Notes under the pieces: generated by a model
The model's input: only the letters and a program-made list of their open reading frames with translations
What the model was told of the DNA's origin: nothing
The model's database searches: none
Made by a program: the position numbers and the translations under genes
Source of the DNA: Desulfosudaceae bacterium
Lineage (GTDB): Bacteria > Desulfobacterota > Desulfobacteria > Desulfobacterales > Desulfosudaceae
Reading direction: 5' to 3'
Length of the DNA stretch: 64,000 nucleotides
Assembly: GCA_963674745.2 (NCBI GenBank)
Contig: CAXXDV010000002.1
Coordinates: forward strand, 32,001 to 96,000
Shown here: piece by piece, positions 31,214-64,000 of the stretch
How positions within the stretch are numbered: the first letter of the stretch is position 1
Layout: each line of letters begins with the position of its first letter

Positions 31214-31999
31214 CTAGAGTTTACGTTTTGCTAACGTGTTGACCTGGGTGGCATCCATGGACAGGGTGTCATCGTCATCTGATGCCGTCGTTTTTCCGTT
31301 GGTTGAGATCAGAATGATCGAGATGTTGTCCTTGCCTTCATGATCTTTGGCGGCCTGAATCAATTCGGTGACACAATCCTTGTCCGGCAGGTCGCGTTCC
31401 ATGATGGCGGCGATTTCCTCGTCTTCCAGTTCACCGGTCAGACCGTCCGAACAAAGCAAAATCTTCTGGCCGTTGGACAAACTTCCGGAAACTGTTCCCA
31501 CCTTCATGTCCGGCAGGGTCTCCGCGCCCAGCGCCTGTGTCAGAATGTTGCGCTTGGGGTGGGAACGGGCTTGTGTTTCAGTCAATACGCCCGTATCCAT
31601 CATTCTTTGTACAAAGGAGTGATCCCTGGTGAGCCTTTTCAGGCTTCCGTCCCATAGATAGGCCCGGCTGTCGCCCACCCAGGCTACCTGATAATTTCTG
31701 TCGAATATTTGCACCGCCACGGCCGTGGCGCCCATACCCGGCCGGCCGATACCGTTTTGAACCGCCTTGAGTACATTAAGATGGGCGGTATTTAAGGCCT
31801 CATCCAGGGGCATGCCCCTGGCCACATCCTGACGCACGGAACGGACAACAATGGCGCTGGCCACTTCCCCGCCTTCGTGCCCGCCCATGCCGTCGGCGAT
31901 GATAAACAATCCTTTTTCAGGATCCGCACTGTAACAGTCTTCATTATGGTCGCGAACACGGCCGGTGTCGGTCGCGTGGGCGCAGCTTACTTGATTCAA
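31214..31999 (-). CDS. PP2C-family Ser/Thr phosphatase (Stp1/PppA-like)
   Basis: TDTGRVRDHNED, IADGMGGH, VGDSRAY, LCSDGL, GKDNIS. Confidence 0.93.
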   Translation of the reverse strand: MNQVSCAHATDTGRVRDHNEDCYSADPEKGLFIIADGMGGHEGGEVASAIVVRSVRQDVARGMPLDEALNTAHLNVLKAVQNGIGRPGMGATAVAVQIFDRNYQVAWVGDSRAYLWDGSLKRLTRDHSFVQRMMDTGVLTETQARSHPKRNILTQALGAETLPDMKVGTVSGSLSNGQKILLCSDGLTGELEDEEIAAIMERDLPDKDCVTELIQAAKDHEGKDNISIILISTNGKTTASDDDDTLSMDATQVNTLAKRKL

Positions 32000-32011
32000 T
32001 ACTTACTCCTT

Positions 32012-33256
32012 TTATATATGTCTTAATGCTACCACCGGTTCCATTTCGGCGGCTTTAACCGCCGGATAAAGACCTGAGATAAGGCCTACCGCAATGGACA
32101 TGAACAGGGCCGACAGTACCGGCCAGACGGTGATGGTCGCCCGCCATTGAATAAACAGATTGACCCCCAGAGCCGCAAAGGCCCCGAGAACGATACCCAG
32201 AACGCCGCCCATCAGGGTTAACAGGATCGATTCACCCAGAAAGTGGATGATAATGTGCTGCCTGCTGGCGCCGATGGCCCGGCGGATGCCGATTTCACGG
32301 GTTCTTTCCGAGACATTGGCCAGCATGATATTCATGATGCCGATACCGCCCACCAGAAGGGATATGCCGGCAATGCTTCCCAGGACGATATTGAACAGGC
32401 GCTGGGTTTTTTGGGCCTGTAAAAGCAGTTCTTTGGGGACAATGATCTCAAAATTTTCAACCCCGTTCCGGTGCCGGAGCAGGGCGTGCCGGACCGCCCC
32501 GGTCACGGCGTTGATGGTCTGGCTGTCGGATATTTTTAATATCATTTCCGACAGGCCAGAATCGGCCACAACGGCTTCGCCGGCGCCGTGTAACGGGATA
32601 AAGGCGGTGTTGTCAAAATCGTGAAGGGCCACCGGCAGGACGTCGTTGTCAATTCTGCCGCGAGGCCGAAGAACACCCACCACGCGAAAAGGGTCCCCGT
32701 CAAAATGAACGGTTGATCCCGGTGCCGCACCCGACCTGATCCTTCTGGCCAGTTTCGCACCCAGGACGCACACCTGGTGGTTGTTACGCACGTCAATATC
32801 TGAAATAAAACGGCCGCCGGACAGTTTCAAGCCACGTACAGAGGCGTAATCCTGGTCGACGGCCAGGGTCTTGATGACATCCGATTCTCCCAGTTCGGCC
32901 AGAAATGAATTGGTCTGCCTGACAACGGTGATGTCTTCAACACCCGGGATCTGTCGCATGGCACCTAAATCCCTGTATCCCAGTTCGTCAGGCGCGGACG
33001 CCGGCGGCCCGTCCGGTTCCACATTATTCACCTCTGCATGACGGATGATAATGGTGTCAATTCCCAAACGGCCGATCTGCTCAATGGCCTCTTTTTTGGC
33101 TCCTTCGGCAATGGCCAGCATGGTAACCACGGCGGCTACGGCAAAGACAATGCCCAGAACGCTCAAAAAGCTCCTCAGCCGATGCAGGGCCAGGGCCTTC
33201 CATGCCTGTTTGACAATGTCGCGGCTACGGCCGGTTATGATGCTGAAGCTACTCAT
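32012..33256 (-). CDS. MacB/FtsX-like ABC permease
   Basis: RLRSFLSVLGI, ISLLVGGIGIMNIML, ERTREIGIRRAIGA, GLYPA. Confidence 0.93.
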   Translation of the reverse strand: MSSFSIITGRSRDIVKQAWKALALHRLRSFLSVLGIVFAVAAVVTMLAIAEGAKKEAIEQIGRLGIDTIIIRHAEVNNVEPDGPPASAPDELGYRDLGAMRQIPGVEDITVVRQTNSFLAELGESDVIKTLAVDQDYASVRGLKLSGGRFISDIDVRNNHQVCVLGAKLARRIRSGAAPGSTVHFDGDPFRVVGVLRPRGRIDNDVLPVALHDFDNTAFIPLHGAGEAVVADSGLSEMILKISDSQTINAVTGAVRHALLRHRNGVENFEIIVPKELLLQAQKTQRLFNIVLGSIAGISLLVGGIGIMNIMLANVSERTREIGIRRAIGASRQHIIIHFLGESILLTLMGGVLGIVLGAFAALGVNLFIQWRATITVWPVLSALFMSIAVGLISGLYPAVKAAEMEPVVALRHI

Positions 33257-33935
33257 TAATTAAGCCGTTATGAATATGCAGCACCGTGTCCGCCTGCCGT
33301 GCGACCTCATCTTCATGGGTCACCACGATCAGGGAGGTGCCTTTTTCATTAATCTGTCTGAAAATTTTTAAAATCTCCCGGGTATTGTCCGAATCCAGGT
33401 TTCCGGTAGGCTCATCGGCCAGCATGATCAAGGGATCAATAACCAGGGCCCGGGCAATGGCTGCCCGTTGCAATTCCCCGCCGGAAAGCTGGCTGGGAAG
33501 GTGGGTGATCCGTTTGGACAGGCCTACCCGGTCCAGGGCCGCAGTCGTCCGTTCCTGAATATTGTCCGGCGGGTCGTTATGGTACATAAACGGCATGGCA
33601 ATATTTTCCATCATCGTACATTGGGCGATGAGGTTATAAGCCTGGAAAACAAATCCGATCCGACTGGCCCTGATCAAAGACAACGCCTGGTCGTCAAGGC
33701 CGGCTGTATCCTGGCCGTTTAAGAGGTATCGGCCCTCGTCCGGCCGGTCCAGGCAACCCAGAATGTGCATCAGGGTCGATTTCCCGGAACCGGACGGTCC
33801 CATGATCGCCATAAACTGACCCGGATATAACGTAATATCCACCCCGCGTAAAGGATAAACGCGGTCATCGCCCGAGGGGTAGCTTTTGCGTAACCCCCGG
33901 GCCTGGATGATGGGCTCGGCGCCGGTCATGGTCAT
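33249..33935 (-). CDS. MacB/LolD-like ABC ATP-binding protein
   Basis: GPSGSGKST, LSGGELQR, LADEPTGNLD, VTHE. Confidence 0.95.
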   Translation of the reverse strand: MTMTGAEPIIQARGLRKSYPSGDDRVYPLRGVDITLYPGQFMAIMGPSGSGKSTLMHILGCLDRPDEGRYLLNGQDTAGLDDQALSLIRASRIGFVFQAYNLIAQCTMMENIAMPFMYHNDPPDNIQERTTAALDRVGLSKRITHLPSQLSGGELQRAAIARALVIDPLIMLADEPTGNLDSDNTREILKIFRQINEKGTSLIVVTHEDEVARQADTVLHIHNGLINE

Positions 33936-37493: not shown

Positions 37494-38963
37494 TCAATCC
37501 GCCGGCAAAACCGATTCGGCTGGATGTTTTGCAGGCCGTGAGGGCCCGGCATCGGCCTGATTGATCAGCGTGCCGATGGCCTTGCGCAACCGGTACTGGC
37601 CGACAATATACTCGATGACCGCCGAAACCAGCTGGGTTTCCGAACGGCGCAGCGCGGTCTCGGCATCAATCAGATCAATGTTGTCGGTCAAACCGTGTTC
37701 GAATTTTACCCTGGCCAGCTCAAGCTGTCCCCGGGCCTGTTGAATCTGATCTTCCTGGGTGGTAATGGCCTTGTCCTGTCGTTCCATATTGCGCAGTTCA
37801 CGTTTTACGCCGGCAACAATTTCGTCTTTTAAGATGCGCTGCCGCCGAACCGTTTGCTGCACACTGATCATGCTTTCCTCAAAGGCGGCTTTCTCCGTTG
37901 TCCGCCACAAATCGGTCGATGACCCCAGGCTGAACCCCCAGGTCGTTTCATCCGGTTTCGAGTCGGAAAAATGCTCAGCCGGGTCCCCGGTAAAATTGAC
38001 TGACAGGCCGATGTCCAGTTCCGGAAGCGTATTCTTTCTGGCGTTGTCGGCCAGGCGTCGGGCTTCGGCCAGTTCATCCCGCACCTGTTCCAGTTCCACC
38101 CGGTTGTCCAGGGCGGTTTGAATCATTTCCTGTTCATCCGGATAGATACGGTCAAAATCCAGGGGCAGGGATATCTTCATATCCTCTTTTAAGGGCAGGG
38201 CCAGAAATATTTTAATGGTATCCAGGGCGTCAACATAGCTCTGCCGGCTCTGGTTGAGTTCTTCTTCAGCCTGATTGCGCTGGATGCGGACCCGGTAAAG
38301 GTCCATGGTGGAGACCAGTCCCATTTGTTTTTTGATGGCGGTTGCCTCTTCCAGATCTTTCAGCCGCTGGTATGACTCTTCCCGCAGGCGGAGGGTTTCC
38401 CGCTGGCGGATGACTTCATAGGCATAGCGCACGGCATTGATAACCGTGTCGACCGCTTTTAAGTAACTGGATCGCAGGGCCGTTCGTTCACTGAAACGGG
38501 CACTGTATACGCCGGACAGATTATAGGCCCTGCCGGCGCCGCGCAACAGCGGCTGGACAATATCGAGACGAATCCGGTTCTGGTATGAATCTTCGGTTTT
38601 AAAAACAGACGGTGTCAGATCGACCCGGGTGCCGAACGGGATCTTTTTTTCCAGGCTTACGGACAGGCCGTAGTCTTTTTCGGTATCCTGTTCGTCTCCT
38701 CCGGAAAAATTGACGCTGGCACCGGGATATATCTTGAGTTCAAACTCGGATCTCGCGGTTGCCAGCCGGAGCCCGGCCCGCCGCACCTCATCCAGGGCGT
38801 CGATCATGCCCCAGCTGGCTTCCAGGGACCGGTTGATGATGCTTTCCAGATCCCAGGCATCGTTACCTGTAGCCCGTCCCGATGGCGGCAGGAGCAAGAT
38901 GACAAATACCACAACAAACAGCGGTGTTATCTTTCTGTTAGATTGGAGTGCCGGTGCCGTCAT
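37494..38963 (-). CDS. TolC-family outer-membrane channel
   Basis: Signal peptide, IVQPLLRGAG, ALDNRVEL, FEHGLTDNIDLIDAE; start set at ATG 38963 because GTG 39032 lies within a hairpin. Confidence 0.85.
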   Translation of the reverse strand: MTAPALQSNRKITPLFVVVFVILLLPPSGRATGNDAWDLESIINRSLEASWGMIDALDEVRRAGLRLATARSEFELKIYPGASVNFSGGDEQDTEKDYGLSVSLEKKIPFGTRVDLTPSVFKTEDSYQNRIRLDIVQPLLRGAGRAYNLSGVYSARFSERTALRSSYLKAVDTVINAVRYAYEVIRQRETLRLREESYQRLKDLEEATAIKKQMGLVSTMDLYRVRIQRNQAEEELNQSRQSYVDALDTIKIFLALPLKEDMKISLPLDFDRIYPDEQEMIQTALDNRVELEQVRDELAEARRLADNARKNTLPELDIGLSVNFTGDPAEHFSDSKPDETTWGFSLGSSTDLWRTTEKAAFEESMISVQQTVRRQRILKDEIVAGVKRELRNMERQDKAITTQEDQIQQARGQLELARVKFEHGLTDNIDLIDAETALRRSETQLVSAVIEYIVGQYRLRKAIGTLINQADAGPSRPAKHPAESVLPAD

Positions 38964-39017
38964 CCTGTTTCTATCATAACGGTTTGGATGTTGATGGTTT
39001 TTTGCCGGTATCTCTAA

Positions 39018-39055
39018 TAGCACAGCTCCCACGCAAAGGCTTGGGAGCTGTGTTA
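39018..39055. terminator. Stem-loop between the paralog pair and tolC
   Basis: TAGCACAGCTCCCA-N10-TGGGAGCTGTGTTA. Confidence 0.55.
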
Positions 39056-39106: not shown

Positions 39107-40198
39107 TCATCGCTTAAAGTTTAATGTCCAGCCGTTGTTAGTCGAATCCAGAACAAAGCTTTTTGAATCTCCGCTGGCATATCCTTCGTAAATCGCCCCG
39201 GCGTCAAAATTCATTGTCAGATAGGTGCCGGAAAGCGACCAGTTACCACCACCCGCTTCTGTTGAAGGGGATGTGTCACCGAGATGGAGCGTGGAAAGAT
39301 TATATGAAAAGGAACCATTTTCATTATAGGTTATCTTTCCCGAAGTGGTCGATCCAGCCGGGTGGCTCCCGGTTACGCTCCATGTACCCACAATGGTATC
39401 TTCCGTCAGTTCCTTCCCACCTGAACTGCTACCCCCACCACCGCCGCCGATGGCCGCTGCAGCACCACCCAGGGCGGCAGCGCCGAGAACACCCGCGCCA
39501 ACCAGAAAGGCCGTGCTGAATCCGGCGGTCGTGGCAGTGACGGTGCCGGCCGACGTGGATGAGGCGGCTTGGCCGCTGGTATGAGATTTTTTGTCTTTGG
39601 TCAGGTAATACAGTCCGCCGGCGACAACACCGAAACGCAGCCCGGATTCGACCTTGTTCATGACAATATTATCCGTGAACCCGGGAAGTTCGTGCGGCAC
39701 CTTATCCAGTTCCATGCTGACCTGGATTTCACTTTTGTCAGGCGCATACTGCCAGGCCGGGGTATCCTCCGACAAGTCCCTTTCTATGGTAAACGGCTGT
39801 GTTTTGACGATCTGGTTATTATTGTTGACCGTCAGAAACAGGTATTCAATTTTTGCCGTGGCTGTTGACGGGGCAGGCAGACGGGCGGAAAAAAATGCGC
39901 CATCGCTGCCGCCGCCGGTCTGGGTCGCGGGCACAAACACAAAGTCGGCCTGGCCGGACCCTTTAAAATAACACCGGACCAGTTTGGTGCCGGCCGGATC
40001 TTTGACAGCGACATCCAGCTGGATGCGGTGTTTGGGCACAAAATAGTCCGGCGGATTATGCTTTATGGCTGTTTCGACTGTGGCGGCTGTGGCTGCCACC
40101 GGCATGAAGGTGGTAAATACAAAGGTAAAGCAGGTGATCATCAGGATCAGGACTTTACCCGGGCCGTTCTGTTTTAACATTTTCCGCATTCCAAACAT
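39107..40198 (-). CDS. Exported protein, paralog B (beta-rich N-domain, Gly/Ala hydrophobic segment, poly-Gly, beta-rich C-domain)
   Basis: Signal peptide; N-terminal about 250 aa clearly homologous to 40229..41416. Confidence 0.8.
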   Translation of the reverse strand: MFGMRKMLKQNGPGKVLILMITCFTFVFTTFMPVAATAATVETAIKHNPPDYFVPKHRIQLDVAVKDPAGTKLVRCYFKGSGQADFVFVPATQTGGGSDGAFFSARLPAPSTATAKIEYLFLTVNNNNQIVKTQPFTIERDLSEDTPAWQYAPDKSEIQVSMELDKVPHELPGFTDNIVMNKVESGLRFGVVAGGLYYLTKDKKSHTSGQAASSTSAGTVTATTAGFSTAFLVGAGVLGAAALGGAAAAIGGGGGGSSSGGKELTEDTIVGTWSVTGSHPAGSTTSGKITYNENGSFSYNLSTLHLGDTSPSTEAGGGNWSLSGTYLTMNFDAGAIYEGYASGDSKSFVLDSTNNGWTLNFKR

Positions 40199-53311: not shown

Positions 53312-54532
53312 TTATATTTCTACTTTGACCATTTTTAACATTAAAAACAACCCGACCGACTCCATCAGAAAGATCAGGATGATAAGCATCCAGCCCAGCG
53401 GCGTCGTGTACATCAAGCTGAAAACATCGTGGTTCAGAAAATTTAAAATCAGTCCCAGAAAAATGGGCAGGGCGGCCAGAATCCAGGCCTGTGTTTCCCC
53501 TTCGGCGGTCATGGTTTTAATCTTTTGCTGGATCCGTTTTCTCTCCTGGATGGTCGTGGCCAGATTGTCGAACCGTTCCGGGAGATTCCCGCCGGATTCG
53601 AGAAGGATAAGGGTGGCGTTGACCATAATTTTGGTGTCATTGCCGGGTATCCGTTCGGCCAGATGGAGCAGGGCGTCTCCCAGGCTGGATCCGAGTCGAT
53701 GTTCGTTAAGCACGATTTCAAATTCTTCGCTCAAGGGGGGTGCTGCTTCCATGACCACCATTTCAATGGACTGGACCAGGCTGAGACCGGCTCGCAGGCC
53801 GTTGGCAATCATGGCCAGCCCGTCGGCCAGTTGCTCATCGAATTTTTTCCTGCGGCGCATTCTCAGCCAGGCGATACTGGCCCGGGGAAACAGGTAAGCC
53901 CCCAGAGCAAACAGCACGGCCAGAAAAAGCCGCGTGCCCAGCTGGTCGGTCAGGCCGCCCGAAAGGTTATACAACTTGTCGTCGGTCACAATAAAGCTCT
54001 CGGATTCCCTGGCCCTGACCTCGGAAAAAGACGCTTCCGAAAATTTATCCATGGCCATGTAAAGTGCCGCCAGGTTCTGGTGGGCCTTTCCATAATAAGG
54101 CAGGAGCCGGACTGCCTCCAGGAAAGCCTTTTCGGACCGGGTAAAATTATTGAGACCGAAATAAGCCACGCCCAGTTCGTTTTGGACCAGAGGAGATTCC
54201 AGAGACTTTAACGGTTCAAGCCGCAGGATGGCCTCGGCGTAATTTTCCTGGCGGTTATCTTTTAAGGCCCGCTGGATAGAGAGCAGGTTGTCGATCTTCG
54301 AGACACCACCGGGAATAAAAAAACCCAGAAGCGCACCGCCGACGGTTAAAATGATAATCGCTCTGGTGATCTGTCCGGCTGAAACATTAATAAACATATC
54401 GGCCAGTGCGGCTTCAATTTTTTGTGCGTAACCGACAGATCCATCCGCCGATGTTAACCGGGTACGCAGGACAAGGTATGCGGCGGCCCACAATAGAACA
54501 AAAACCATCAATAGAATTAAAATCGTGTCCAT
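53312..54532 (-). CDS. tadB: TadB with an inserted TPR domain
   Basis: FDEQLADGLAMIANGLRAGLSL, ESGGNL, KTMTAEG; TPR (NELGVAYF...AHQNLAALY) between TM helices. Confidence 0.85.
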   Translation of the reverse strand: MDTILILLMVFVLLWAAAYLVLRTRLTSADGSVGYAQKIEAALADMFINVSAGQITRAIIILTVGGALLGFFIPGGVSKIDNLLSIQRALKDNRQENYAEAILRLEPLKSLESPLVQNELGVAYFGLNNFTRSEKAFLEAVRLLPYYGKAHQNLAALYMAMDKFSEASFSEVRARESESFIVTDDKLYNLSGGLTDQLGTRLFLAVLFALGAYLFPRASIAWLRMRRRKKFDEQLADGLAMIANGLRAGLSLVQSIEMVVMEAAPPLSEEFEIVLNEHRLGSSLGDALLHLAERIPGNDTKIMVNATLILLESGGNLPERFDNLATTIQERKRIQQKIKTMTAEGETQAWILAALPIFLGLILNFLNHDVFSLMYTTPLGWMLIILIFLMESVGLFLMLKMVKVEI

Positions 54533-54609: not shown

Positions 54610-56676
54610 TCAGTTACTGGTCCAGAAGACTTCTCTGGGAATATTAATGCCTCTTTCCTGGAAACGTTCAATGCAGTGCGGAACATAACCGGTTGAAGAG
54701 AATTCTCCGGTCACTTTTCCGTTTTCTTCACCGGTCTGGCGATAAACAAAAATGTCGCCCAGGGTAATGACGTCACCCTGGATGCCGTCGATCTCCGCGA
54801 TCTGGACGACCTTTCGCGTACCGTCCTTGAACCGGCGGATCTGAACAATCAGGTCAATGGCACCCACGATCTGTTCTTTGATGGCCTTGACGGGAAGTTC
54901 GAACCCGGCATAGAGCACCAGCGTCTCCAGCCGGGAAATGGCTTCGCGGCAGGAGTTTGAATGTATCGTGGTCAGGGACCCGTCGTGGCCGGTGTTCATG
55001 GCCTGGAGCATATCCAGGGCTTCGGCCCCGCGGCATTCACCGACAACGATCCTGTCCGGTCTCATGCGCAGGCTGTTCCTGACCAGATCCCGGATGACGA
55101 CCTCACCTTTCCCTTCGATATTCGGCGGGCGGCTTTCCAGGGTGACCACATGGGGCTGCCGCAGTCTTAATTCGGCGGCGTCCTCGATGGTAACGATCCG
55201 GTCGCTTTCAGGGATAAAACTGGACATGATATTCAGCAGCGTTGTTTTACCCGAGCCGGTGCCGCCCGAGATGAGAATATTGAGGTTGGTCCGGACCGCG
55301 GCTTTTAAAAATTCCACAACCTGCGAGTTGATCGTTCCCAGGGCCAGAAGTTCCGGTATGCCGATCTGTTCTTCGGGAAATTTCCGGATGGTCAGGCAGG
55401 CCCCTCTGACCGCCAGTGGCGGGATAATTGCGTTTACCCTTGACCCGTCCTTCAGCCGGGCATCCACCATGGGCGTGCTGGTATCGATTTTTCGACCCAG
55501 CGGGGCCGTAATGCGGGCGATGATGTTGATCAGGTGCTGTTCGGAGAAGAACTTTTTGTCGATCCGGACCAGGCGCCCCTTTTTTTCCACATAAATATCA
55601 TTCCAGGCGTTGACCATGATTTCAGAAACATCCGGGTCAGCCAGAAGATCTTCAATCACGCCCAGCCCCAGGGCTTCCTGTAAAACGTCCTTGACCAGGT
55701 GTTTGCGTATTTCCCTGTCCCGGATACGGGATTCGCTGTCCAGAATCTCGGAAATCTTTTGTGAGACAAAGGCCTTGAGCTCTTCGGCTTTTTCCTGGTC
55801 CTGATCAATCTCGGTATCCAGTTTTTTAAAATCAATGGATTCAAGCAGCTTTTCGTGAACGGCGCGCTTGAGCTCATCCAGGTTGACTTCCGGTTTTTCA
55901 TCCTGGATCGGGCCGCCTGTTTTTTTCGGTGACTGGCTCCGGGTATCGCGGACCAGCATGTAGGTAAGATTGTCAAAGGCCTTGGTAACCGGATGCTTGG
56001 GGAGTTTTTCCGGGTATGTCCCCTGGGCCAGGTTGGCGGCGGCTTCAGGGTCCTGCGGAATGAGAACTTCCGGTGCTTTGCCGGTCAGGCCGGTCAGAAA
56101 GTCGATGGCCGGCGAACTGGTTTTATCGACCCGGTTGACGATGACTCTGATCAGTTCCCGGGGAAAGTTTTTTCGCTGTAAAAGCTTGAGGTCGTTCTGC
56201 GTTTGCCTGAGCGATAACGTTTCCGGGGTGGCGGGAATCAAAATCATGCTGGACCGGTCGAGAATGGTTTCGATAACAGTGTCCAGCCGGCCGCCCACGT
56301 CGACAATGATGTAGTTATAGATTGACTGCAGGCAGGCCATTATGTTTGAAATCCGGTCGGCGTTAAACATATCTTCCGGCAGCGGCCTGATACCGTCAGT
56401 CAGGTTGAGAACGGAAATACCGGAACCATGAACGGTGGCGAAGCCCTTGAGCATGTTGGCCGAGAGTTTGTCGCCCATGGACAGCAGGTTTTCAATGCGC
56501 TTGATCTCTTTTAAGTTCAAAAGGAAACCGATATCACTGGAAACCGGCCGGGAAAAGTCGATCAGCAGGACTTTTTCCTTGGTGTCCAGGAGCAGGTCTA
56601 CCGCCAGGTTGGCGGCGATAAAGCTTTTCCCGACGCCCCCTTTGGAGCTGTATATGGAGATAATATGTCCGTTCAT
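54610..56676 (-). CDS. tadA: Fused CpaE/TadZ (ParA/MinD-like) - CpaF/TadA ATPase
   Basis: N-terminal SKGGVGKS; C-terminal GGTGSGKTT, TIEDAAEL, LRMRPDRIVVGECRG, MNTGHDGS. Confidence 0.92.
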   Translation of the reverse strand: MNGHIISIYSSKGGVGKSFIAANLAVDLLLDTKEKVLLIDFSRPVSSDIGFLLNLKEIKRIENLLSMGDKLSANMLKGFATVHGSGISVLNLTDGIRPLPEDMFNADRISNIMACLQSIYNYIIVDVGGRLDTVIETILDRSSMILIPATPETLSLRQTQNDLKLLQRKNFPRELIRVIVNRVDKTSSPAIDFLTGLTGKAPEVLIPQDPEAAANLAQGTYPEKLPKHPVTKAFDNLTYMLVRDTRSQSPKKTGGPIQDEKPEVNLDELKRAVHEKLLESIDFKKLDTEIDQDQEKAEELKAFVSQKISEILDSESRIRDREIRKHLVKDVLQEALGLGVIEDLLADPDVSEIMVNAWNDIYVEKKGRLVRIDKKFFSEQHLINIIARITAPLGRKIDTSTPMVDARLKDGSRVNAIIPPLAVRGACLTIRKFPEEQIGIPELLALGTINSQVVEFLKAAVRTNLNILISGGTGSGKTTLLNIMSSFIPESDRIVTIEDAAELRLRQPHVVTLESRPPNIEGKGEVVIRDLVRNSLRMRPDRIVVGECRGAEALDMLQAMNTGHDGSLTTIHSNSCREAISRLETLVLYAGFELPVKAIKEQIVGAIDLIVQIRRFKDGTRKVVQIAEIDGIQGDVITLGDIFVYRQTGEENGKVTGEFSSTGYVPHCIERFQERGINIPREVFWTSN

Positions 56677-56681
56677 ATTAA

Positions 56682-58142
56682 TTATCTGGCCTGATCGCGC
56701 AGTTTTTCCAGTTCCTGTTCCTTAAAACCCTGTTCAACTGATTTTTTCATTTCCGTTGAGCCGACCGCTTCGGTGGAAAGAATCCGGGGAGTGACAAAAA
56801 TGACGACTTCCCGGCTGTCGGTACCTTTTCTGGTGGCTTTATTGGCCTGGAACAGGGCCGAACCACCGCCCGGTGCGGACCCGGAGAGCGCTTCCACGTC
56901 CCTTTGGCCCATCATACCACCCAGGGCGATACTTTGACCGCTGGCGACACTCAGCACCGTATTCAGGTTGGTGGTGCTGATGGTCGGCGCGCCGCCCGGC
57001 CCCTGACCGGTAATACTGCTTGATTCGACGCTGATGCTACTGACGATATTTTTGTAAGCGTCAATGATTGGTTTGAAATCCAGTGTCACGCCGATTTTTT
57101 TATATTCCACGGACATGGTTCCGCCGTCCTGGGCAATCGGGATGGGGACTTCCGAACCGGCGAAAAGATGGGCTGAATCACCGCTTTTCGTCAGCAGGGT
57201 CTGTTGCATCAAAGAACGGCCACGGCCGGTTTCATTGATTTTTCTCATTTTGGGCAACAGATTGGACAGGGTGCCGGTCAGTGAACCCGCCAGGGTCGGG
57301 CCTTGTCCTTTGGCTCCGGAATAGGCGCCGGTACCGCCGACAGAGCCGCCCGGGTTCCAGTGCACGCCGAAATCCCGCAGGGCATTTCGTTCTATTTCCA
57401 TAATGTTGACCGACATTTCAATCAGCACCGGTTTCTCCGGTTGGGGAAAATCCTTTCCGGAAACGGGTGTACGGATGGCAATGGCATTGACGATGTCCGG
57501 AGAGTAGGCCTGGGCGATCTGCTGCGCCCGCTTGGACTCTTCTTCGCTTCTCACATGACCGGTCAGCATGAATTTGTTCTGGGTCACCGCGACATTGACG
57601 TTTTTCATGCCCTGTGACGCCAGGGCTTTGTCAATTTCTTTTTTGACAATTTCCTTCATGACCGGGCTGAGCTCGACCAGGTTGACCACATCGGGCTGGC
57701 CTTCAATGACGGTTTGGATTTTTTTCATATCGTTGTGGGAGAACACTTCCCCCTCAACAAAGACCCGGTTGCCGGTTACCCGGACACGGACACCCTCGAT
57801 ATGTTTAATGACCTCCCGGATTTCACCGGCCATGGTCTCCAGCTTCCGGTTTCGGACAATAACCTGGAATTCAGCCTGTTGGTCCGTTCCCCAGACAAAG
57901 ATGTTGGTCTGACCGGCGCCTTTGGCGTTGAGCAGCATTTCCTGGTCCCTGACTTTGACGCACCCCAGGATTTCCGGATCGCCGACGGCGATTTTTTCAA
58001 TATCGAAATCAGATTTCAATATCCGGCTTTGTCCTGCGTCCATTTCTATTGTTTCTGTTGTTTGCGCCAAAAGCAGGGGCTGATTGGTCAGCAGGCATAA
58101 GCAAAATAACAGGCAGCCGATTTTAATTACAGGCCGTATCAT
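56682..58142 (-). CDS. rcpA: RcpA/CpaC Tad secretin with BON-like domains
   Basis: Signal, IAVGDPEI...GAGQTNIFVW, AGSEVPIP, EYKKIGVTLDFKP, VIFVTPRI. Confidence 0.85.
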   Translation of the reverse strand: MIRPVIKIGCLLFCLCLLTNQPLLLAQTTETIEMDAGQSRILKSDFDIEKIAVGDPEILGCVKVRDQEMLLNAKGAGQTNIFVWGTDQQAEFQVIVRNRKLETMAGEIREVIKHIEGVRVRVTGNRVFVEGEVFSHNDMKKIQTVIEGQPDVVNLVELSPVMKEIVKKEIDKALASQGMKNVNVAVTQNKFMLTGHVRSEEESKRAQQIAQAYSPDIVNAIAIRTPVSGKDFPQPEKPVLIEMSVNIMEIERNALRDFGVHWNPGGSVGGTGAYSGAKGQGPTLAGSLTGTLSNLLPKMRKINETGRGRSLMQQTLLTKSGDSAHLFAGSEVPIPIAQDGGTMSVEYKKIGVTLDFKPIIDAYKNIVSSISVESSSITGQGPGGAPTISTTNLNTVLSVASGQSIALGGMMGQRDVEALSGSAPGGGSALFQANKATRKGTDSREVVIFVTPRILSTEAVGSTEMKKSVEQGFKEQELEKLRDQAR

Positions 58143-58172: not shown

Positions 58173-59033
58173 TTAATATCGTGAAATGGCTTCCGCCCCT
58201 CTGATTTCAACCCAGGCCGGGTTGGACCTGGGAATGATACTTTTCTTTATGCCCAGAAATTCCTGCGCCGAAAGCGGGGGCAGGTTGACGATATTTCCGT
58301 CATCAAAACTGGACCTGAGGCAGGCCGAGATGGTGCCGATTTCCTGTGACAGATTCAATATCTGTACCTGACGCGGTTCAAGCGCCAGGGTCAATGTTTT
58401 TATCCGGTCTTTCTTGCTGCCGCCCTGGCGGGCGCCGGAAAGAAGGCTGCCTGCCGCCTGCTGATCGACATTGGCCACGTCGCCGGAGCGACGTGAGCTT
58501 GAGGTCTGGTTGACGGCCAGAACCAGGATGTTTTCCAGAACGGTTCGGGTGATGATTTCCTCGCTGACACCCATCCCGTCCTTAAAGGAACCGGCTTCCA
58601 CCGTTACCATCAGGTCAACCATATCGCCTGGCTGAACCAGCTCCCCGACGGCGGTAACATCGGTTACAAAAATACTGAAGGCCCGTTTCCCGGCCGGTAT
58701 TTTGGCGGCGATACCGCCCATATCAGCCACGGCAAACATGGACTCTATGATCTGCGTTCCTTTGAGTACCGGTACATTAATATTCCGGTTGACGATGTGC
58801 TGACTGTCGGCAAAGGAGCCGGGCTGGGCATATTTCACGGGGACCTGAATCTGTTCGATCATATTCGGCTCAATGCGTTGCCCTTCGGGAATGTCCCTGG
58901 CCGCGACCAGCACCGTAACCGGCGAGGCCATCTCCAGCAGCTTTTTCTCTTTGGAACTGATATAAGAAAAAAGCAGGATTATCGCGAATAAGGATATGGC
59001 CAGTGAAATCAATAAAGCTCTCGTGTTCGTCAT
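58173..59033 (-). CDS. cpaB: Flp pilus assembly protein CpaB/RcpC
   Basis: SAF domain VLVAARDIPEG, GKRAFSI, VQPGDMVD, LENILVLAV. Confidence 0.92.
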   Translation of the reverse strand: MTNTRALLISLAISLFAIILLFSYISSKEKKLLEMASPVTVLVAARDIPEGQRIEPNMIEQIQVPVKYAQPGSFADSQHIVNRNINVPVLKGTQIIESMFAVADMGGIAAKIPAGKRAFSIFVTDVTAVGELVQPGDMVDLMVTVEAGSFKDGMGVSEEIITRTVLENILVLAVNQTSSSRRSGDVANVDQQAAGSLLSGARQGGSKKDRIKTLTLALEPRQVQILNLSQEIGTISACLRSSFDDGNIVNLPPLSAQEFLGIKKSIIPRSNPAWVEIRGAEAISRY

Positions 59034-59451: not shown

Positions 59452-60321
59452 TTATTTGAATAAAACGGCCGTGTAATCGGGGTTCCCTTTATACACATGT
59501 CCGCCGGCCGGTTTGGCTGCCGCCTTGGCACTTAAGGCCGGAAAACCGCCGAAAATTTGACCGGCCAGCAGATAATCACCGGCCGGCAAAAAAAGCTCAT
59601 AGTCCACATATGTAGGCGCTGTTTTGGCGACCCGTTCCGGCAGGACGAAAACACCTGGTACCGACGACATCCTGTAGGCAGGCAGGGCGTACTGGCCGTT
59701 TCGGTCGTCTGCGTACCTGGGGGTACCCGGTCTCTTCCAGCGCAATGTCGGTACCGGCGGGCTTTCTTCCGGGTCACTGGGCATGGTGTAGTAGTTAAAA
59801 CGAACGGTTTTCACGATCTCATTTAAATTTGTCAACGGTCCGGTTTTTTTTACCACCAGGCGGCTTTCGGGAAAGTTCTGATCTTTAACATACCGCGCCA
59901 CAACATCCGCCTGGCTGGCGTAATAGGTGTTGCCCTGATCCTGGTAACGCCGGATATAATCAATGACGCCGCTGCCGCCGTTATAAAAGAAGTCGCAGGC
60001 CTTCATGGCCTGACTGCGGTCGCGCCAGGTGCCGCTCTCCAGAATACGTGACAACGTATTGTACTCCCTGACCATTTCACTGTTTAAGTCGGCAATTTCA
60101 TTCAACCCGGCGGCCTGGACAGCGGCTGCTGAAAGGGCACAGGCGTCGACGGTGTTCTGCAGTTTGATTTTAGTGAAAATCAGCTGGTTGATATCGACGA
60201 TCAGCGCCACCATCAAAAGCATGACCGGCAGCAAAAGGGCGATCATCACCGTCATTGATCCTTGTTGAGATGGGGCGCAGAATTCTTTTATTGTTGTGAA
60301 ATCGGAAAGGGCCATGGCCAT
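59452..60321 (-). CDS. TadG-like pseudopilin
   Basis: QQG^SMTVMIALLLPVML...VD...KLQNTVDACALSAA. Confidence 0.8.
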   Translation of the reverse strand: MAMALSDFTTIKEFCAPSQQGSMTVMIALLLPVMLLMVALIVDINQLIFTKIKLQNTVDACALSAAAVQAAGLNEIADLNSEMVREYNTLSRILESGTWRDRSQAMKACDFFYNGGSGVIDYIRRYQDQGNTYYASQADVVARYVKDQNFPESRLVVKKTGPLTNLNEIVKTVRFNYYTMPSDPEESPPVPTLRWKRPGTPRYADDRNGQYALPAYRMSSVPGVFVLPERVAKTAPTYVDYELFLPAGDYLLAGQIFGGFPALSAKAAAKPAGGHVYKGNPDYTAVLFK

Positions 60322-60369: not shown

Positions 60370-60765
60370 TCAGAAAGGATCCGGGTTGTCATCCCTGTAC
60401 GTTGGTTCTTTAAATATAGGTGAGGCGTGTTTGATTTTGAACCTGTCCTCTCCGCCTGTTAAAAAGTCGGCAACAATGTCCGGCATCGGGACGTCTCTAA
60501 CCAACTCAAGCGTTCCATTCAGGGTAATACCCGCTTGGGGCGCTATGCTCGAGGCTGTCTCAATGGCCGGACCGGCGCCCTCGACGGCATACGTCCTGGC
60601 ACCCGCGAACCCCGCGAAGGCGAGGCGCTGTTCGGCGATAAAGAAAACCACGAACTGCATGAAAATACCGAAAAAAACCAGAAGGCCGATCAGGGCAAAA
60701 GCAAACTCTACCGTTGCCGCGCCTTTGTTCTGCTTTAATATCGGTTGCCTGGAGTGATCTGAAAT
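60370..60765 (-). CDS. TadE-like minor pilin, probable non-canonical (ATT) start
   Basis: Frame continues upstream of ATG 60660 as ...QNKG^AATVEFAFALIGLLVFFGIFMQ; no in-frame ATG/GTG/TTG before the motif; AGGGGG precedes ATT ATT. Confidence 0.7.
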   Translation of the reverse strand: MSDHSRQPILKQNKGAATVEFAFALIGLLVFFGIFMQFVVFFIAEQRLAFAGFAGARTYAVEGAGPAIETASSIAPQAGITLNGTLELVRDVPMPDIVADFLTGGEDRFKIKHASPIFKEPTYRDDNPDPF

Positions 60766-60790
60766 AATTCCCCCTAAACGGCTGCAGTGT

Positions 60791-60864: not shown

Positions 60865-61104
60865 TTAAATGCCGAAGATCTCACGCACTTTTGCAATGAT
60901 CGCCTTGAAAAACGCTTCCAGGGGTTCTCTCATAACAGCCGCCGCTGCGACGACCATGGTGACAATAACGGCAATAACCAGGGCATATTCGACCGCACCG
61001 GCGCCCCTCTGGTTTTTAATGGTCTGTTTGAGCTCATGTGTGAAATTTTCCTGCCGGAGGTATAATTTCATTATCCAGGTGTTGATTCTTTCAAGCATGA
61101 TCAT
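60865..61104 (-). CDS. flp: Flp family pilin
   Basis: NQRG^AGAVEYALVIAVI; AAGGAG RBS. Confidence 0.88.
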   Translation of the reverse strand: MIMLERINTWIMKLYLRQENFTHELKQTIKNQRGAGAVEYALVIAVIVTMVVAAAAVMREPLEAFFKAIIAKVREIFGI

Positions 61105-61113: not shown

Positions 61114-61317
61114 TTAAGTGTTTGGAAAAGAAACAACATATTGTTTAAATTTGGCAATTATATCAATAGACATATCTTTGAACAGGGCAAAAACGCCAAG
61201 CATAAGGAATGCCGCAATCATCATACTCAGGGCATATTCCACTGCTATGGCACCACGCTCTTTAGGGCGCACCAGATACTGATGAATCCGGATGACGTGT
61301 TTTTTTAAACGGTTCAT
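61114..61317 (-). CDS. flp: Flp family pilin (second copy)
   Basis: KERG^AIAVEYALSMMIAA; start at ATG 61317 or TTG 61344. Confidence 0.8.
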   Translation of the reverse strand: MNRLKKHVIRIHQYLVRPKERGAIAVEYALSMMIAAFLMLGVFALFKDMSIDIIAKFKQYVVSFPNT

Positions 61318-61508
61318 TTTGTTTAACGTGTTATCAGCAAACAAATTGGCAAGAACGGATTACCGTTGCGAAACGTTCAGTAATTTATTCTTGTCCAATA
61401 CCTTTTGGGCAAAATGAAAATTCTTACCATATATTGTATTATTTTTTACGCAAAGTCAATAAATAACGATTTCCAGCCCCGGCGATTGAACACCTCCAGT
61501 CGGCGGTT

Positions 61509-62036
61509 TTAATAGTTGCCCACCTGAAGCTTATACCCGTTTCGAAAAAGATAGGTGTAGTCAGCAGCATATTGGGAACCTTCCAGTTCCAGGGCGTTTT
61601 TCAAAAACCACAACTCCAGATCATCGTTCCAGGCCGACCGGTCCTTGTCTTCAGGCGGTATACCTTTGATACGATCAATCTCGTTGCCGTTTTTATAAAG
61701 AATGACAGTGGGTAGCATCTCCAGACCGAATCGGGCGGGGTCATCGTCAATCCGCCAGTGAAACATGGCGAATTTCGCTTTCCCGCTGTATTTTTTAGCC
61801 AGCCATTCCAGCCGCCATTTCATGTCAAGGGATTGCCAGAACTGGGTGTTATAAAACAAAACAATAGCCGAACCGCCATAACTCAGGATCTCATCGGCAT
61901 ATGTCTGGTGGTTGACAATCGTCAACGGTGAGGTCGGTTCCGGTGAATATGGCCGGATGCTTTGTTGCCCCGCGCAGGCCACCAGTAAAAGCATGGGAAC
62001 GACGGCAAAAAACAGGGTGAAAACGGTTTTTTTCAT
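61509..62036 (-). CDS. Thioredoxin-fold lipoprotein lacking CxxC
   Basis: Lipobox LVAC; AIVLFY..., FGLEMLPTVILYKNGNEIDRIKG. Confidence 0.7.
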   Translation of the reverse strand: MKKTVFTLFFAVVPMLLLVACAGQQSIRPYSPEPTSPLTIVNHQTYADEILSYGGSAIVLFYNTQFWQSLDMKWRLEWLAKKYSGKAKFAMFHWRIDDDPARFGLEMLPTVILYKNGNEIDRIKGIPPEDKDRSAWNDDLELWFLKNALELEGSQYAADYTYLFRNGYKLQVGNY

Positions 62037-62132
62037 GTCATGATCCTTTTCCGCTATTTGTCTCTTCCAAGCGATTTTAACATTATCCTATCAATGTGTT
62101 AAACCACCAGAGCGAAAGCGCTGACAGGCGCT

Positions 62133-64000
62133 TTATTGCCAGGGGTTGTCCATTTTATAGGGATTATCTTGCCTATAGGGATTGTCTTGTCTATAGGGAT
62201 TATCACCTTTATATGTATGGCTATGGTCCGGGGTCTCTGACGGCTGGTCGGTTTTTGTGCCATTCCCGGGTTGCGTGTCGGGGCCCAACGATACGCCCGG
62301 CTGATTATTGCCTTGCCCGGTTGGCGTGTCAGTTCCTAAAATAACGCCCGAGTCTGTCTCCGTAATGGTAACATTAACCCCGTCTGTTCCTGTGCCGTCA
62401 GTGCCGGAACCTGCGGCTGTTCCCGTTCCGGTCACATCAGTGCCGTCAGTGCCGGAACCTGCGGCTGTTCCCGTTCCGGTCACATCAGTACCGTCAGTGC
62501 CGGAACCTGTGGCTGTTCCCGTTCCGGTCACGTCAGTACCGTCAGTGCCGGAACCTGTGGCTGTTCCCGTTCCGGTCACGTCAGTACCGTCAGTGCCGGA
62601 ACCTGCGGCTGTTCCCGTTCCGGTCACATCAGTACCGTCAGTGCCGGAACCTGTGGCTGTTCCCGTTCCGGTCACGTCAGTACCGTCAGTGCCGGAACCT
62701 GTGGCTGTTCCCGTTCCGGTCACGTCAGTGCCGTCAGTGCCGGAACCTGTGGCTGTTCCCGTTCCGGTCACGTCAGTGCCGTCAGTGCCGGAGGCCGACC
62801 CTGTTCCCGCTCCCGTTCCGGTCGAGCCGTCAATGCCCGTGCCCGTCCCCGCCAGGATTACATTGTCAGGTAGTACATCGCCCGTACCGTCACCGTTCCC
62901 CAGCATTCCGATCAGATCCTGGGCCAGTTTACCGCCGTTAAGCACCGGATTCGTGAGGATTTCGGTAATGGTGAGGCCCATGTCGAGGCTGGAGTCCACG
63001 ACTTTCTGAACGTCTTCGGGCAGCATGTCATGCCATTGCTTGAATTTGTCCTTCCAACCCGAAAAGTTGCCCCCAACGGAGAGCCCATCGACCAGAACTT
63101 TTATGGAGCCAATTTTATCCAGCAATAATGGTCCAAGCTTGCCCAGATCGTCCATCCACCCCGTCGGCAGTTTTATTTTGGAAAGGTCATCCAGTGCGTT
63201 TTTCCATTTAGAAAAATCACCTAAATCATCCGGATTCATTCCCATAAAGGTCAAGAGCTTCTGGAATTTTCCCATTTGTGCAAATTTGTCAAGAGAACCG
63301 CCTATGTTTGCAAGTCCACCGCCGATGATTCCGAGTATATCCAGCCGGAAATTCCTGCTGTCCGCTTCCTCTTTGGATATACGGCCATAATCTTTTTCTG
63401 TGTTAACGTAACCCTGGAGCCCGCTTATGTAGCCGCCCAGCGCAAAAGCCGCGCAGGCCCAGCCCCCGGTTACAACACAGCCGGCGGCGCCCAGGCCAAA
63501 AAGACCGGCTTTCCACAAGGAAAAACTGCCATTGTCATAAAAGGTGTTTTCAATGGTGTTGATGGCCCAGACCTGTGCTCTTTCGGGTATGAAGCTGCAG
63601 GCATATGCCCCTGCTTTATTAACCAGATTTTTGGCGCCGTTATAGGTGGCACTGGCGATCTGACCGGTTTTGGTGGCGATCTTTCCGCCCACTTCTACGG
63701 CTTTGGTGATTACGGCCGAGGCTGTATTTTTAACTTTCTGGCCGATGGGTCGGACCCAGTTTTCATTAAACGAACGGGCTTTGGACGAGAGCCAGCTGCC
63801 GAATCCCCCGATATAAGGCGGCTGGGTCAGATAATCCGATCCCAGGGCGGAAGCGGCAAGGTTTATGGCCCGGGGATTGCCGATGCCTTTGACCACCACC
63901 ATCCGTGAGCCGGCGGTAAAGACCACGTCGATACTGTCCGGATTCAGGTGCAGGAACGGTTCATTGCCCAGACGGGCACTTAAGTCGAACAGAAGACGGG
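62133..64000 (-). CDS. C-terminal part of a large protein with Gly/Thr/Asp tandem repeats (5' end probably outside the window)
   Basis: 597-aa ORF whose frame appears to run to the window edge; hydrophobic Gly/Cys segment, 16-aa repeats, DNPY repeats. Confidence 0.75.
   Translation of the reverse strand, partial: RLLFDLSARLGNEPFLHLNPDSIDVVFTAGSRMVVVKGIGNPRAINLAASALGSDYLTQPPYIGGFGSWLSSKARSFNENWVRPIGQKVKNTASAVITKAVEVGGKIATKTGQIASATYNGAKNLVNKAGAYACSFIPERAQVWAINTIENTFYDNGSFSLWKAGLFGLGAAGCVVTGGWACAAFALGGYISGLQGYVNTEKDYGRISKEEADSRNFRLDILGIIGGGLANIGGSLDKFAQMGKFQKLLTFMGMNPDDLGDFSKWKNALDDLSKIKLPTGWMDDLGKLGPLLLDKIGSIKVLVDGLSVGGNFSGWKDKFKQWHDMLPEDVQKVVDSSLDMGLTITEILTNPVLNGGKLAQDLIGMLGNGDGTGDVLPDNVILAGTGTGIDGSTGTGAGTGSASGTDGTDVTGTGTATGSGTDGTDVTGTGTATGSGTDGTDVTGTGTATGSGTDGTDVTGTGTAAGSGTDGTDVTGTGTATGSGTDGTDVTGTGTATGSGTDGTDVTGTGTAAGSGTDGTDVTGTGTAAGSGTDGTGTDGVNVTITETDSGVILGTDTPTGQGNNQPGVSLGPDTQPGNGTKTDQPSETPDHSHTYKGDNPYRQDNPYRQDNPYKMDNPWQ
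62392..62792. repeat. Coding tandem repeat, 48 nt x 8 plus a partial unit
   Basis: Unit gtRccgtcagtgccggaacctgYggctgttcccgttccggtcacRtca, encoding GSGTDGTDVTGTGTA(T/A) on the minus strand. Confidence 0.95.

Follow-up and report, generated by a model that had tools for sequence, protein, structure and literature searches.

The window analysed here, by which the whole stretch of 64,000 nucleotides is meant (positions 32,001 to 96,000 of contig CAXXDV010000002.1 in the Desulfosudaceae assembly GCA_963674745.2; C2:32001-96000 of the genome designated G000), carries on its minus strand a locus in which genes for a Flp/Tad pilus adjoin genes for a Ser/Thr kinase, a phosphatase, FHA-domain membrane proteins and an export apparatus. 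It encodes a Tad machine that has its own Ser/Thr switch and a second motor, and to which a little-known envelope module is attached. Sequence comparisons indicate that it is a composite of two conserved modules kept together by one Desulfobacterales clade. Module A comprises the Flp/Tad pilus, a TadZ-TadA fusion, a thioredoxin-fold (Trx) lipoprotein, a PilB-type ATPase, TadC, three FHA proteins with transmembrane (TM) segments and a PP2C phosphatase. Module B comprises a Hanks-type kinase, an exported orthocaspase, CsgG and GNA1162 lipoproteins, the p363 family and a TolC-MFP-MacB exporter (MFP, membrane-fusion protein). With somewhat more belief than doubt, the whole is regarded as a phospho-gated Tad machine for contact or adhesion, coupled to a module for envelope export or display, where both the gating and the contact function are deduced from the genes.

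FHA484, one of the three FHA proteins, was used as a specific marker in the search for related loci; its family is narrow, with 25 relatives at ≥38 % identity among 5.8 billion proteins and about 60-70 full-length representatives among 1.84 billion proteins. One genome per species was scanned, and tblastn with 33 query proteins followed. Eleven loci were obtained from genomes named Desulfobacterales, Desulfococcaceae, Desulfobacteraceae or Desulfosalsimonadaceae, plus one metagenome-assembled genome named 'Pseudomonadota'. The families were syntenic in 11/11, so that the synteny search proposed in an earlier note on this DNA revealed a neighbourhood beyond chance. About 27 families occur together in 12 species-level Desulfobacterales genomes, namely G000, ten of the eleven loci (L019 being cut short) and G080, and the set is kept through rearrangements, in at least four arrangements and at 26-58 % identity. 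After extension the full set was present in G041, G042, G043, G044 and G080.

The usual order is PP2C-flp1-flp2-minor pilins-cpaB-rcpA-cpaEF-tadB-[variable secreted protein(s)]-Trx-pilB-tadC, continued by FHA484-FHA299-FHA500-STK-caspase-csgG-GNA1162-p363 (1-3 copies)-tolC-MFP-ABC-permease (STK, Ser/Thr kinase). G000 departs from it in that the Tad block is swapped with the block of transglutaminase-like protein, rep1276 and Trx, PP2C stands at the tail and a cyclase-FHA gene is added. The PP2C gene heads the block in G041 and G042 and directly follows FHA500 in the variant consisting of module A only. The tail is inverted in G043, and the set is cyclically permuted in G080, there at 26-58 % identity. 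In G003 (same family, other genus) the set is split over two contigs, C52 and C57, which show no sequence overlap; TPR reading frames running off both ends suggest that they join through a TPR gene. The junction between the modules was constant: FHA500 is followed by the kinase and the caspase in 10/10 loci reaching that far, as well as in G000 and G080 (the L015 caspase is cut at the contig end). CsgG and GNA1162 come after the caspase in nine of those loci and in G044 once extended (L031), and in G080 only CsgG does so, GNA1162 being at the block head. The TolC-MFP-ABC-permease set was found in 7/7 genomes whose sequence reaches the tail.

Gene order and composition of the locus

The minus-strand open reading frames (ORFs) of 31214-64000 were scanned with Pfam, and the resulting order, from high to low coordinate, reproduced gene for gene the one listed in the earlier note:

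62133..64000 (gene to ~65963, outside the window), minus strand: rep1276, secreted repeat protein, C-terminal 621 of 1,276 aa; signal peptide
61509..62036, minus strand: Trx-fold lipoprotein without CxxC; Pfam Thioredoxin 22.8 bits, just below cut-off
61114..61344, minus strand: Flp-type pilin 1; leader ...RG/AIAVEYAL; homologs in relatives
60865..61104, minus strand: Flp-type pilin 2; G/AVEYAL; Flp_Fap 29.9 bits, cut-off 32.2
60370..60780 (upper bound approximate), minus strand: TadE-like minor pilin; leader KG/AATVEFAF; orthologs in G003, G041, G042 and G043
59452..60321, minus strand: TadG/TadE-like minor pilin, 289 aa; Pfam Tad 46.3 bits, TadE 26.8 bits
59049..59531, minus strand: TadE/F-like minor pilin, start uncertain; G/QAIVEL leader; orthologs in relatives
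58173..59033, minus strand: CpaB/RcpC; Pfam RcpC 84.4 bits and SAF; TIGR03177 158.8 bits, above cut-off
56682..58142, minus strand: RcpA/CpaC secretin; pilus_N (30-96) and BON (165-223) ahead of the secretin domain
54610..56676, minus strand: CpaE(TadZ)-CpaF(TadA) fusion ATPase; begins at the ParA/MinD P-loop, no receiver-like N-domain
53312..54532, minus strand: TadB-like platform protein with TPR insert; T2SSF 64.1 bits, TPR_2
51586..53295, minus strand: second ATPase, PilB/GspE-type; T2SSE 411.7 bits; MshEN-like N-domain, Walker A, tetracysteine motif
50697..51572, minus strand: TadC-like platform protein, single T2SSF; in relatives always adjoins pilB, not tadB
49216..50670, minus strand: FHA484; FHA, TM, periplasmic alpha/beta domain, TM and long helix, C-terminal alpha/beta domain
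48320..49219, minus strand: FHA299; FHA, TM, periplasmic TPR
46837..48339, minus strand: FHA500; FHA, linker with two D-x-T-[VI]-[VLI] motifs, TM, periplasmic TPR
45092..46819, minus strand: Hanks-type Ser/Thr kinase; Pkinase 184 bits; juxtamembrane DDAT[ILVM] repeats, TM, periplasmic DUF4384 75.5 bits
42956..45022, minus strand: exported orthocaspase; signal peptide, two Glucodextran_B-like Ig domains, C14 domain (Peptidase_C14) 74.6 bits
42174..42929, minus strand: CsgG/HfaB-family lipoprotein; CsgG 35 bits, cut-off 20.8; lipobox Cys invariant
41473..42165, minus strand: GNA1162-like (DUF799) periplasmic/outer-membrane protein; 58.4 bits
40229..41431, minus strand: p400, paralog of p363; signal peptide and conserved beta-sandwich, then a hydrophobic Gly/Ala-rich stretch, a Pro/Thr linker and a variable barrel at the C terminus
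39107..40198, minus strand: p363; N-terminal beta-sandwich 44-140, disordered 182-259, lipocalin-like barrel 271-362
37494..39032, minus strand: TolC-family outer-membrane factor; OEP 99.8 bits
36020..37486, minus strand: membrane-fusion adaptor, HlyD/MacA-like (Pfam, NCBIfam)
33249..33935, minus strand: ABC ATPase, LolD/MacB-type (Pfam, NCBIfam)
32012..33256, minus strand: MacB_PCD and FtsX permease; 117.7 and 74.2 bits
31214..31999, minus strand: PP2C Ser/Thr phosphatase; Stp1-type 219.3 bits, cut-off 230; metal-binding motifs present

The Tad/kinase/export block spans 37 kb and ~31 same-strand genes, 29 of them inside the window and 31 overall. The co-directional run continues for ~4 kb outside the window, where the 1,276-aa repeat protein is completed and two more genes lie upstream of it, encoding a transglutaminase-like protein and a class-III nucleotide cyclase-FHA protein. 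The earlier note's picture of about 30 consecutive genes with mostly short gaps was borne out by the ORF table (gaps of -20 to 164 bp), except that a 2.1-kb repeat-bounded insertion between MFP and ABC had been overlooked. No Pfam family matched rep1276, p400 or p363. NCBIfam at E<=1e-4 gave nothing for rep1276, the transglutaminase-like protein, both Flp pilins, two of the three minor pilins, TadB, TadC, CsgG, GNA1162 and p363; far under the cut-off, p400 had one match of 21.7 bits and the Trx protein one of 28 bits. Hydrophobicity and N-termini place the three FHA proteins and the kinase in the membrane, with their N-terminal domains in the cytoplasm. Signal peptides or lipoboxes were found in the caspase, CsgG, GNA1162, p400/p363, the Trx-like protein, rep1276 and the transglutaminase-like protein.

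Of the features by which Tad/type IVc systems are recognised, the following were present: Flp prepilins with the G/xxxxEY motif, TadA/CpaF, TadB, TadC, RcpA, CpaB and TadZ/CpaE. The CpaE-CpaF fusion is the sole copy in the genome, and its architecture is widespread in Desulfobacterota. A terminator-like hairpin follows flp2 at 60796-60813, as a weak match to the consensus only. The three minor pilins named in the earlier note are of TadE/G type, with the reservation that the middle gene has no canonical start codon; in the TadE-like gene at 60370-60780 the frame is open upstream of the listed ATG and offers no ATG, GTG or TTG start, which would mean either a rare start codon or the loss of the start codon.

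The Trx lipoprotein lies directly upstream of pilB, and tadC after pilB, in 13/13 relatives, which suggests a second motor unit separate from TadZA-TadB. In the alignment of 13 Trx sequences WQS replaces CxxC in 13/13, and the lipobox is kept without active-site cysteines, so the protein appears to be redox-dead, with the fold alone retained. The second ATPase scored 566 bits against the PilB and 525.6 bits against the GspE model of NCBIfam, both below the equivalog cut-offs. Binding of c-di-GMP by its N-domain was considered and is not claimed, as the first repeat of this domain has neither the Arg nor the Gly of the MshEN motif.

A variable secreted protein, rep1276 or a ~420-aa substitute, always immediately precedes the Trx-pilB pair. 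In rep1276 a 48-nt unit recurs 8.3 times with 97 % identity (62395-62792) and an 18-nt unit encoding DNPYRQ recurs 2.7 times (62156-62204), which makes the protein a candidate for length variation; its matches in the protein atlas were below 0.85. Its C-terminal NPY repeats are common to the variable protein upstream of Trx in relatives. These proteins end in tandem (W/V)xNPY(K/R/A)D-type repeats preceded by QPGV(S/T)LG, and beyond this C-terminal tail of NPY heptads they have almost nothing in common. Proteins with the tail were located at:

L016:5418-6716
L018:5564-6817
L015:5232-6506
also in L019, L021, L024 and L032

In the export half, the His (AGHG) and Cys (DTCHSG) residues of the C14 dyad are present in the orthocaspase. 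In G003 a further caspase-like gene (L012:10549-11616), shorter and with 28 % identity to the caspase domain, lies upstream of the cyclase-FHA gene. The paralogs p363 and p400 have a conserved N-domain, a Gly/Ala-rich stretch that is disordered in p363, and a variable C-domain. Foldseek searches with the p363 model returned only generic lipocalin/ToxS-like barrels and Ig-like sandwiches, and in the protein atlas p363 matched only unnamed clusters, at 0.89-0.90. A complex predicted for the p363 N-domain with CsgG and GNA1162 scored 0.28 against a mark of 0.32. A third paralog with 45 % identity was found far off at G000:C3:1590390-1591394, with no other locus family nearby. Of the curli system Pfam found only CsgG in the locus, neither the subunits CsgA/B nor CsgE/F, and the set for a MacB-type tripartite exporter (MacB_PCD/FtsX, ABC ATPase, MFP and TolC duct) is all present.

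G003 lacks the insertion between MFP and ABC (33936-36019; 2,084 bp, GC content 0.43). Inverted repeats of 69 nt that are 86 % complementary flank it, a further copy of the repeat lies in its interior, and its two genes encode an acidic protein of 80 aa and one of 263 aa in which an HEIGH motif is found. The repeat recurs at 9 other sites on C1 and C3, which gives the insertion the look of a repetitive extragenic palindromic or miniature inverted-repeat transposable element (REP/MITE). The sigma-54 promoter pattern gave 3 matches against 2.27 expected, none of them upstream of locus genes and one inside the insertion. The contig C2 measures 131,627 bp (131.6 kb) in a genome of 5.55 Mb that is 99.96 % complete; terminal overlap that would mark it as a plasmid was looked for and none was found. 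In G042 the block is carried on a 1.39-Mb contig.

On the opposite strand, two side observations were made. Genes for a PspF-like sigma-54 activator, PspA, a 191-aa protein and a flotillin/SPFH protein (26974-31090, plus strand) adjoin the locus, with a sigma-54-like site of one mismatch at 28045-28060 near the pspA start. A formate-dehydrogenase-type molybdopterin enzyme (20934-23699, plus strand) appears as two ORFs in the list, and would be one protein of 921 aa if the in-frame TGA at 22065-22067 encodes selenocysteine (CARLUHSS).

Phosphorylation motifs and the proposed switch

The kinase sequence holds VAIK, HRDIKPSN and DFG, and the catalytic motifs of the kinase, the caspase, PP2C and the transglutaminase-like protein are intact. 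Between its catalytic and TM parts the kinase carries 2-5 tandem DDAT[ILVM][ILV] units in 12/12 aligned orthologs, and the FHA500 linker contains D-x-T-[VI]-[VLI] twice in 12/13 orthologs, the exception being the G059 protein. FHA domains prefer pT-x-x-hydrophobic/Asp, where pT is phosphothreonine. The conserved DDAT motifs of the kinase and DxT[VI] motifs of FHA500 suggest docking of FHA domains on phosphothreonine, and both are put forward as putative docking sites.

On the receiving side, the phosphothreonine-binding residues of FHA484 (G27 R28, S42, H45 and N64) are invariant in 24/24 relatives. The structure model of this protein reached a pLDDT (predicted local distance difference test) of 73.6 with a confident FHA domain; besides FHA domains, the best Foldseek match was the WalK integrative sensor model at a TM-score of 0.25. 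From the model, FHA484 is read as a sensor-like scaffold without a kinase domain.

The favoured scheme, a gated Tad machine coupled to module B, would work as follows. The FHA proteins would turn their cytoplasmic FHA domains to the motors and their periplasmic TPR or sensor-like domains to the secretin. An envelope signal would activate the kinase, which would autophosphorylate the threonines of DDAT[ILVM] and phosphorylate the D-x-T-[VI] motifs of FHA500. The three FHA proteins would then dock on the phosphothreonines, and the Tad/PilB motors would be assembled or activated at that site until PP2C reset the switch. Module B would export, process or display surface proteins such as the p363 family and the secreted NPY-repeat protein, and the likely output would be attachment under regulation, or contact between cells. 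In predatory bacteria, from which FHA-rich Tad-like machines were already known, a signalling cascade has been proposed for Kil. With a Hanks kinase, PP2C and three FHA-membrane proteins beside Tad genes, this locus offers the hypothesis that phosphothreonine docking controls Tad assembly.

Joint and separate occurrence of the modules and competing readings

A number of observations weigh against the locus being one gated machine. It is rare, with 5/401 sampled genomes of the order and 4/401 of the phylum (counts that include G000 and one match of FHA only), and a search of the two genomes of the same genus, G002 (99 % complete) and G001 (71 % complete), did not reveal it. Module A occurs alone in Desulfovibrionaceae-type genomes and module B alone in other Desulfobacterales. 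No kinase was found near the module-A-only loci, so their FHA proteins must depend on a different kinase or do without one, and in L036 PP2C is followed by chemotaxis-type genes. G714 (99 % complete) gave genome-wide no p363 match at E<=1e-8 and no caspase at E<=1e-15. Conversely, no CpaE-F match at E<=1e-30 was obtained in G286, G278, G049 and G150, four of the five genomes with module B genes beside p363; these four gave only matches of FHA-domain length to the FHA484 profile, and a full-length FHA484 relative was found in none of the five. PP2C was not found by tblastn on the two G003 contigs or in the 60 kb examined in G080. Pfam detected no Peptidase_A24 (prepilin peptidase of TadV/CpaA type) in the locus, the single genomic copy being unlinked at C3:2131095, and scans for sigma-70 promoters and terminators gave consensus-level matches only.

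The module-A-only loci (G059, G714 and the metagenome loci L036/L037, the two loci of 66-69 % GC obtained in a metagenome scan with a narrow alignment) share the order flp...cpaEF-tadB-small secreted protein-Trx-pilB-tadC-FHA484-FHA299-FHA500-PP2C, and no kinase/caspase/CsgG/TolC block adjoins. G499 (variant III) is simpler still, keeping the Tad and FHA genes without Trx and pilB. For module B, a profile of the p363 N-domain matched 17/401 genomes of the order, and in five of the seven non-carrier p363 loci examined (in addition to the third copy in G000) module B genes stood beside p363. G278 and G219 contain GNA1162, csgG, p363 and tolC-MFP-ABC-permease, G049 GNA1162, csgG and p363, and G150 p363 and the pump. 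Next to csgG, G278 and G049 also show a partial and weak caspase-like match. The order in G286 is STK-p363-Ig/Lcl protein-caspase-csgG-GNA1162-PP2C-FHA-lytic transglycosylase-tolC. The gene at L043:9889-11376 in this genome, beside PP2C and TolC, encodes an FHA domain joined to a lytic transglycosylase of SLT type. Caspase, CsgG, GNA1162, p363 and MacAB-TolC form a conserved module by themselves.

The earlier note had taken all these genes for one system. That Tad, PilB, FHA, kinase, caspase, CsgG-GNA1162, paralog and TolC-MFP-ABC genes are co-inherited in 12 genomes despite at least four rearrangements speaks for it. The system is not indivisible, however: A is found without B in G714, L036/L037 and G059, and the caspase/CsgG/GNA1162/p363/TolC-MacB half without the Tad half in G286, G278, G049 and G150. 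Unlinking of the modules in related genomes, regarded in that note as telling against its claim, was thus found in part.

The history of the modules was followed in a CpaE-F tree (IQ-TREE, 19 rows). The proteins of the joint A and B core form a clade (99/99) that includes the protein of Desulfonatronovibrio magnus, and those of the module-A-only variant form a clade (100/100) with proteins of Desulfolutivibrio sulfoxidireducens and Solidesulfovibrio. G080 sits on a long, unresolved branch, so B may have joined A once or twice. The D. magnus fusion ATPase (P0207) is 70 % identical and nests beside G000 and G003; Desulfonatronovibrio is a genus of another order than Desulfobacterales, and this placement gives a hint of transfer between lineages and of a carrier in culture. 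Cultured organisms with a fusion ATPase of the same clades are D. sulfoxidireducens and Solidesulfovibrio for the simple variant and possibly D. magnus for the full one.

An unlikely but serious alternative is that two independent systems lie side by side, a Tad pilus with FHA proteins and PP2C and a kinase-controlled system for envelope export or matrix, their adjacency being due to island co-transfer without cross-talk. The occurrence of each module alone and the patchy distribution agree with it, and the D. magnus ATPase inside a Desulfobacterales clade fits island-like transfer. Stand-alone B in G286 has its own kinase, PP2C and FHA-lytic-transglycosylase protein, so that the kinase is ancestrally part of B. 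Against this, the halves have stayed together in the joint loci in spite of at least four rearrangements and of identities as low as 26-58 %, and the FHA500-STK-caspase junction is invariant in 12 genomes. Each joint locus contains one kinase and at most one PP2C gene, while module A brings three FHA proteins that need a source of phosphothreonine; the acidic-Thr-hydrophobic type of motif, moreover, is common to FHA500 of module A and the kinase of module B.

A bolder and rather doubtful idea is that module B constitutes a new envelope apparatus under the control of Ser/Thr phosphorylation, which would dock to the FHA-rich Tad machine to give a contact-sensing organelle. The CsgG-like channel and its GNA1162-like partner would thread or display polymorphic p363 proteins, each with a beta-sandwich in the periplasm, a segment rich in Gly/Ala and a variable barrel at the surface; these proteins the exported orthocaspase would process and MacAB-TolC would serve. 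Phosphorylated DDAT repeats would recruit the three FHA-TM scaffolds, and pilus assembly would fire at points of contact between the surface proteins and a partner cell or mineral. If true, this would be the first identified kinase behind an FHA-rich Tad-like machine.

Use of the motors in the manner of a type II secretion system (T2SS) is quite improbable. The PilB/GspE-type ATPase and TadC would drive a short minor-pilin pseudopilus without an adhesive fibre, pushing through RcpA a periplasmic cargo such as rep1276 or its ~420-aa substitutes, the transglutaminase-like protein or the orthocaspase. The second ATPase indeed scores near both the PilB and GspE models and has the tetracysteine motif, the variable NPY-tail protein is always just upstream of Trx-pilB, and several exported enzymes are encoded in the locus. 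Two genes for Flp-type major pilins followed by the terminator-like hairpin, however, fit the production of a fibre, no GspC/L/M-type components were detected in the locus by Pfam, and variant III retains the Tad and FHA genes without Trx and PilB.

Least of all is a Kil-like machine for contact-dependent killing to be expected, as in Myxococcus or Bdellovibrio with the caspase and transglutaminase-like proteins as effectors: the FHA-rich Tad-like locus recalls Kil (PMC8460266, accessible part), the TadZ-TadA fusion recalls Bdellovibrio (10.64898/2026.07.08.737194, accessible part) and exported proteases are encoded, but the Kil hallmarks are absent (the ATPase is not FHA-fused, the secretin has N-terminal domains, and a second ATPase and TadG-like genes are present), Pfam and NCBIfam revealed no toxin/immunity pairs in the locus, the carriers are named Desulfobacterales or Desulfovibrionaceae, which are not known predators, and Kil-like systems are reported, in the accessible part of the Kil paper, only in Myxococcales, Bdellovibrionales and Bradymonadales (PMC8460266). 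The coupled, phospho-gated Tad machine for contact or adhesion remains the reading that is preferred.

Comparison with known systems

No description of the Tad/PilB/FHA/kinase/caspase/CsgG/TolC combination was found in the literature searched, which left most subscription journals outside, and the statement in the earlier note that it is not recognised as a described system stands to that extent. Nor did that literature yield the arrangement of two motors, one composed of TadZ-TadA and TadB, the other of a PilB-type ATPase, TadC and a redox-dead Trx lipoprotein.

The exporter shares with MacAB-TolC systems the MacB_PCD/FtsX permease, the LolD/MacB-like ATPase, the MacA-like adaptor and the TolC duct, but its ATPase and permease are separate polypeptides and its context is a pilus/kinase locus. 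The CsgG-GNA1162 adjacency is that of a three-gene 'curli-like' CsgG/HfaB-GNA1162 cluster of Acinetobacter, which the accessible part of its description links to extracellular matrix, pili and biofilm and terms widespread and uninvestigated (10.1101/2021.05.19.444899). In the present locus the two genes lie among those for an orthocaspase, the p363 family, a MacAB-TolC pump and a kinase.

With the canonical Tad/Flp systems (Cpa of Caulobacter, Tad of Aggregatibacter) the locus has in common Flp with G/xxxxEY, TadE/G, CpaB, RcpA/CpaC, the CpaE and CpaF functions, TadB and TadC. It differs in the fusion of CpaE to CpaF, in a TadC that stands apart from TadB and is paired with a PilB/GspE-type ATPase and a Trx-fold lipoprotein, in having no prepilin peptidase and no recognised TadD-type pilotin in the locus, and in three FHA-TM proteins, PP2C and a kinase that are built in.

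The Kil system of Myxococcus xanthus is described, in the accessible part of the paper, as a Tad-derived machine with over-represented FHA proteins and many unknown genes, whose only ATPase is fused to FHA, whose short secretin lacks N0 and in which TadG is missing, and the authors proposed a signalling cascade upstream of assembly (PMC8460266); the word 'kinase' is absent from the main text. The FHA-rich Tad theme is common to both. In the present locus, however, kinase and phosphatase are encoded within it, CpaF is fused to CpaE and not to FHA, a second, PilB-type ATPase is present, pilus_N and BON precede the secretin domain, and the hosts are not known predators. FHA-rich Tad-like machinery extends beyond predators, to lineages of sulfate reducers. 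For Bdellovibrio bacteriovorus, the accessible part of the text reports the same fusion of TadZ to TadA without a receiver-like N-domain, FHA and TPR genes near tad, dispersed tad genes and Flp processed by a general prepilin peptidase, and makes no mention of a kinase/PP2C/caspase/CsgG block; the terms 'PilB' and 'second ATPase' are absent from the text (10.64898/2026.07.08.737194).

In Pseudomonas aeruginosa the TagQRST-PpkA-PppA-Fha1 pathway gates the place and time of assembly of the H1 type VI secretion system (H1-T6SS) by a logic that, according to the accessible part of the source, is the same: outer-membrane lipoprotein and periplasmic sensor, LolCDE/MacB-like ABC transporter, Hanks kinase with a periplasmic domain, PP2C and FHA scaffold (PMC13713981). 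A Hanks kinase with a periplasmic domain, PP2C and FHA proteins are all present in the locus studied here, in which Pfam and NCBIfam detected no T6SS core families. The machine in this case is a Tad pilus, three membrane-anchored FHA proteins stand in place of one soluble Fha1, and the sensor parts are probably not homologous, TagR and TagQ not being known to be related to CsgG and GNA1162. The TagQR-PpkA-Fha1 pathway is the closest analogue, in logic only.

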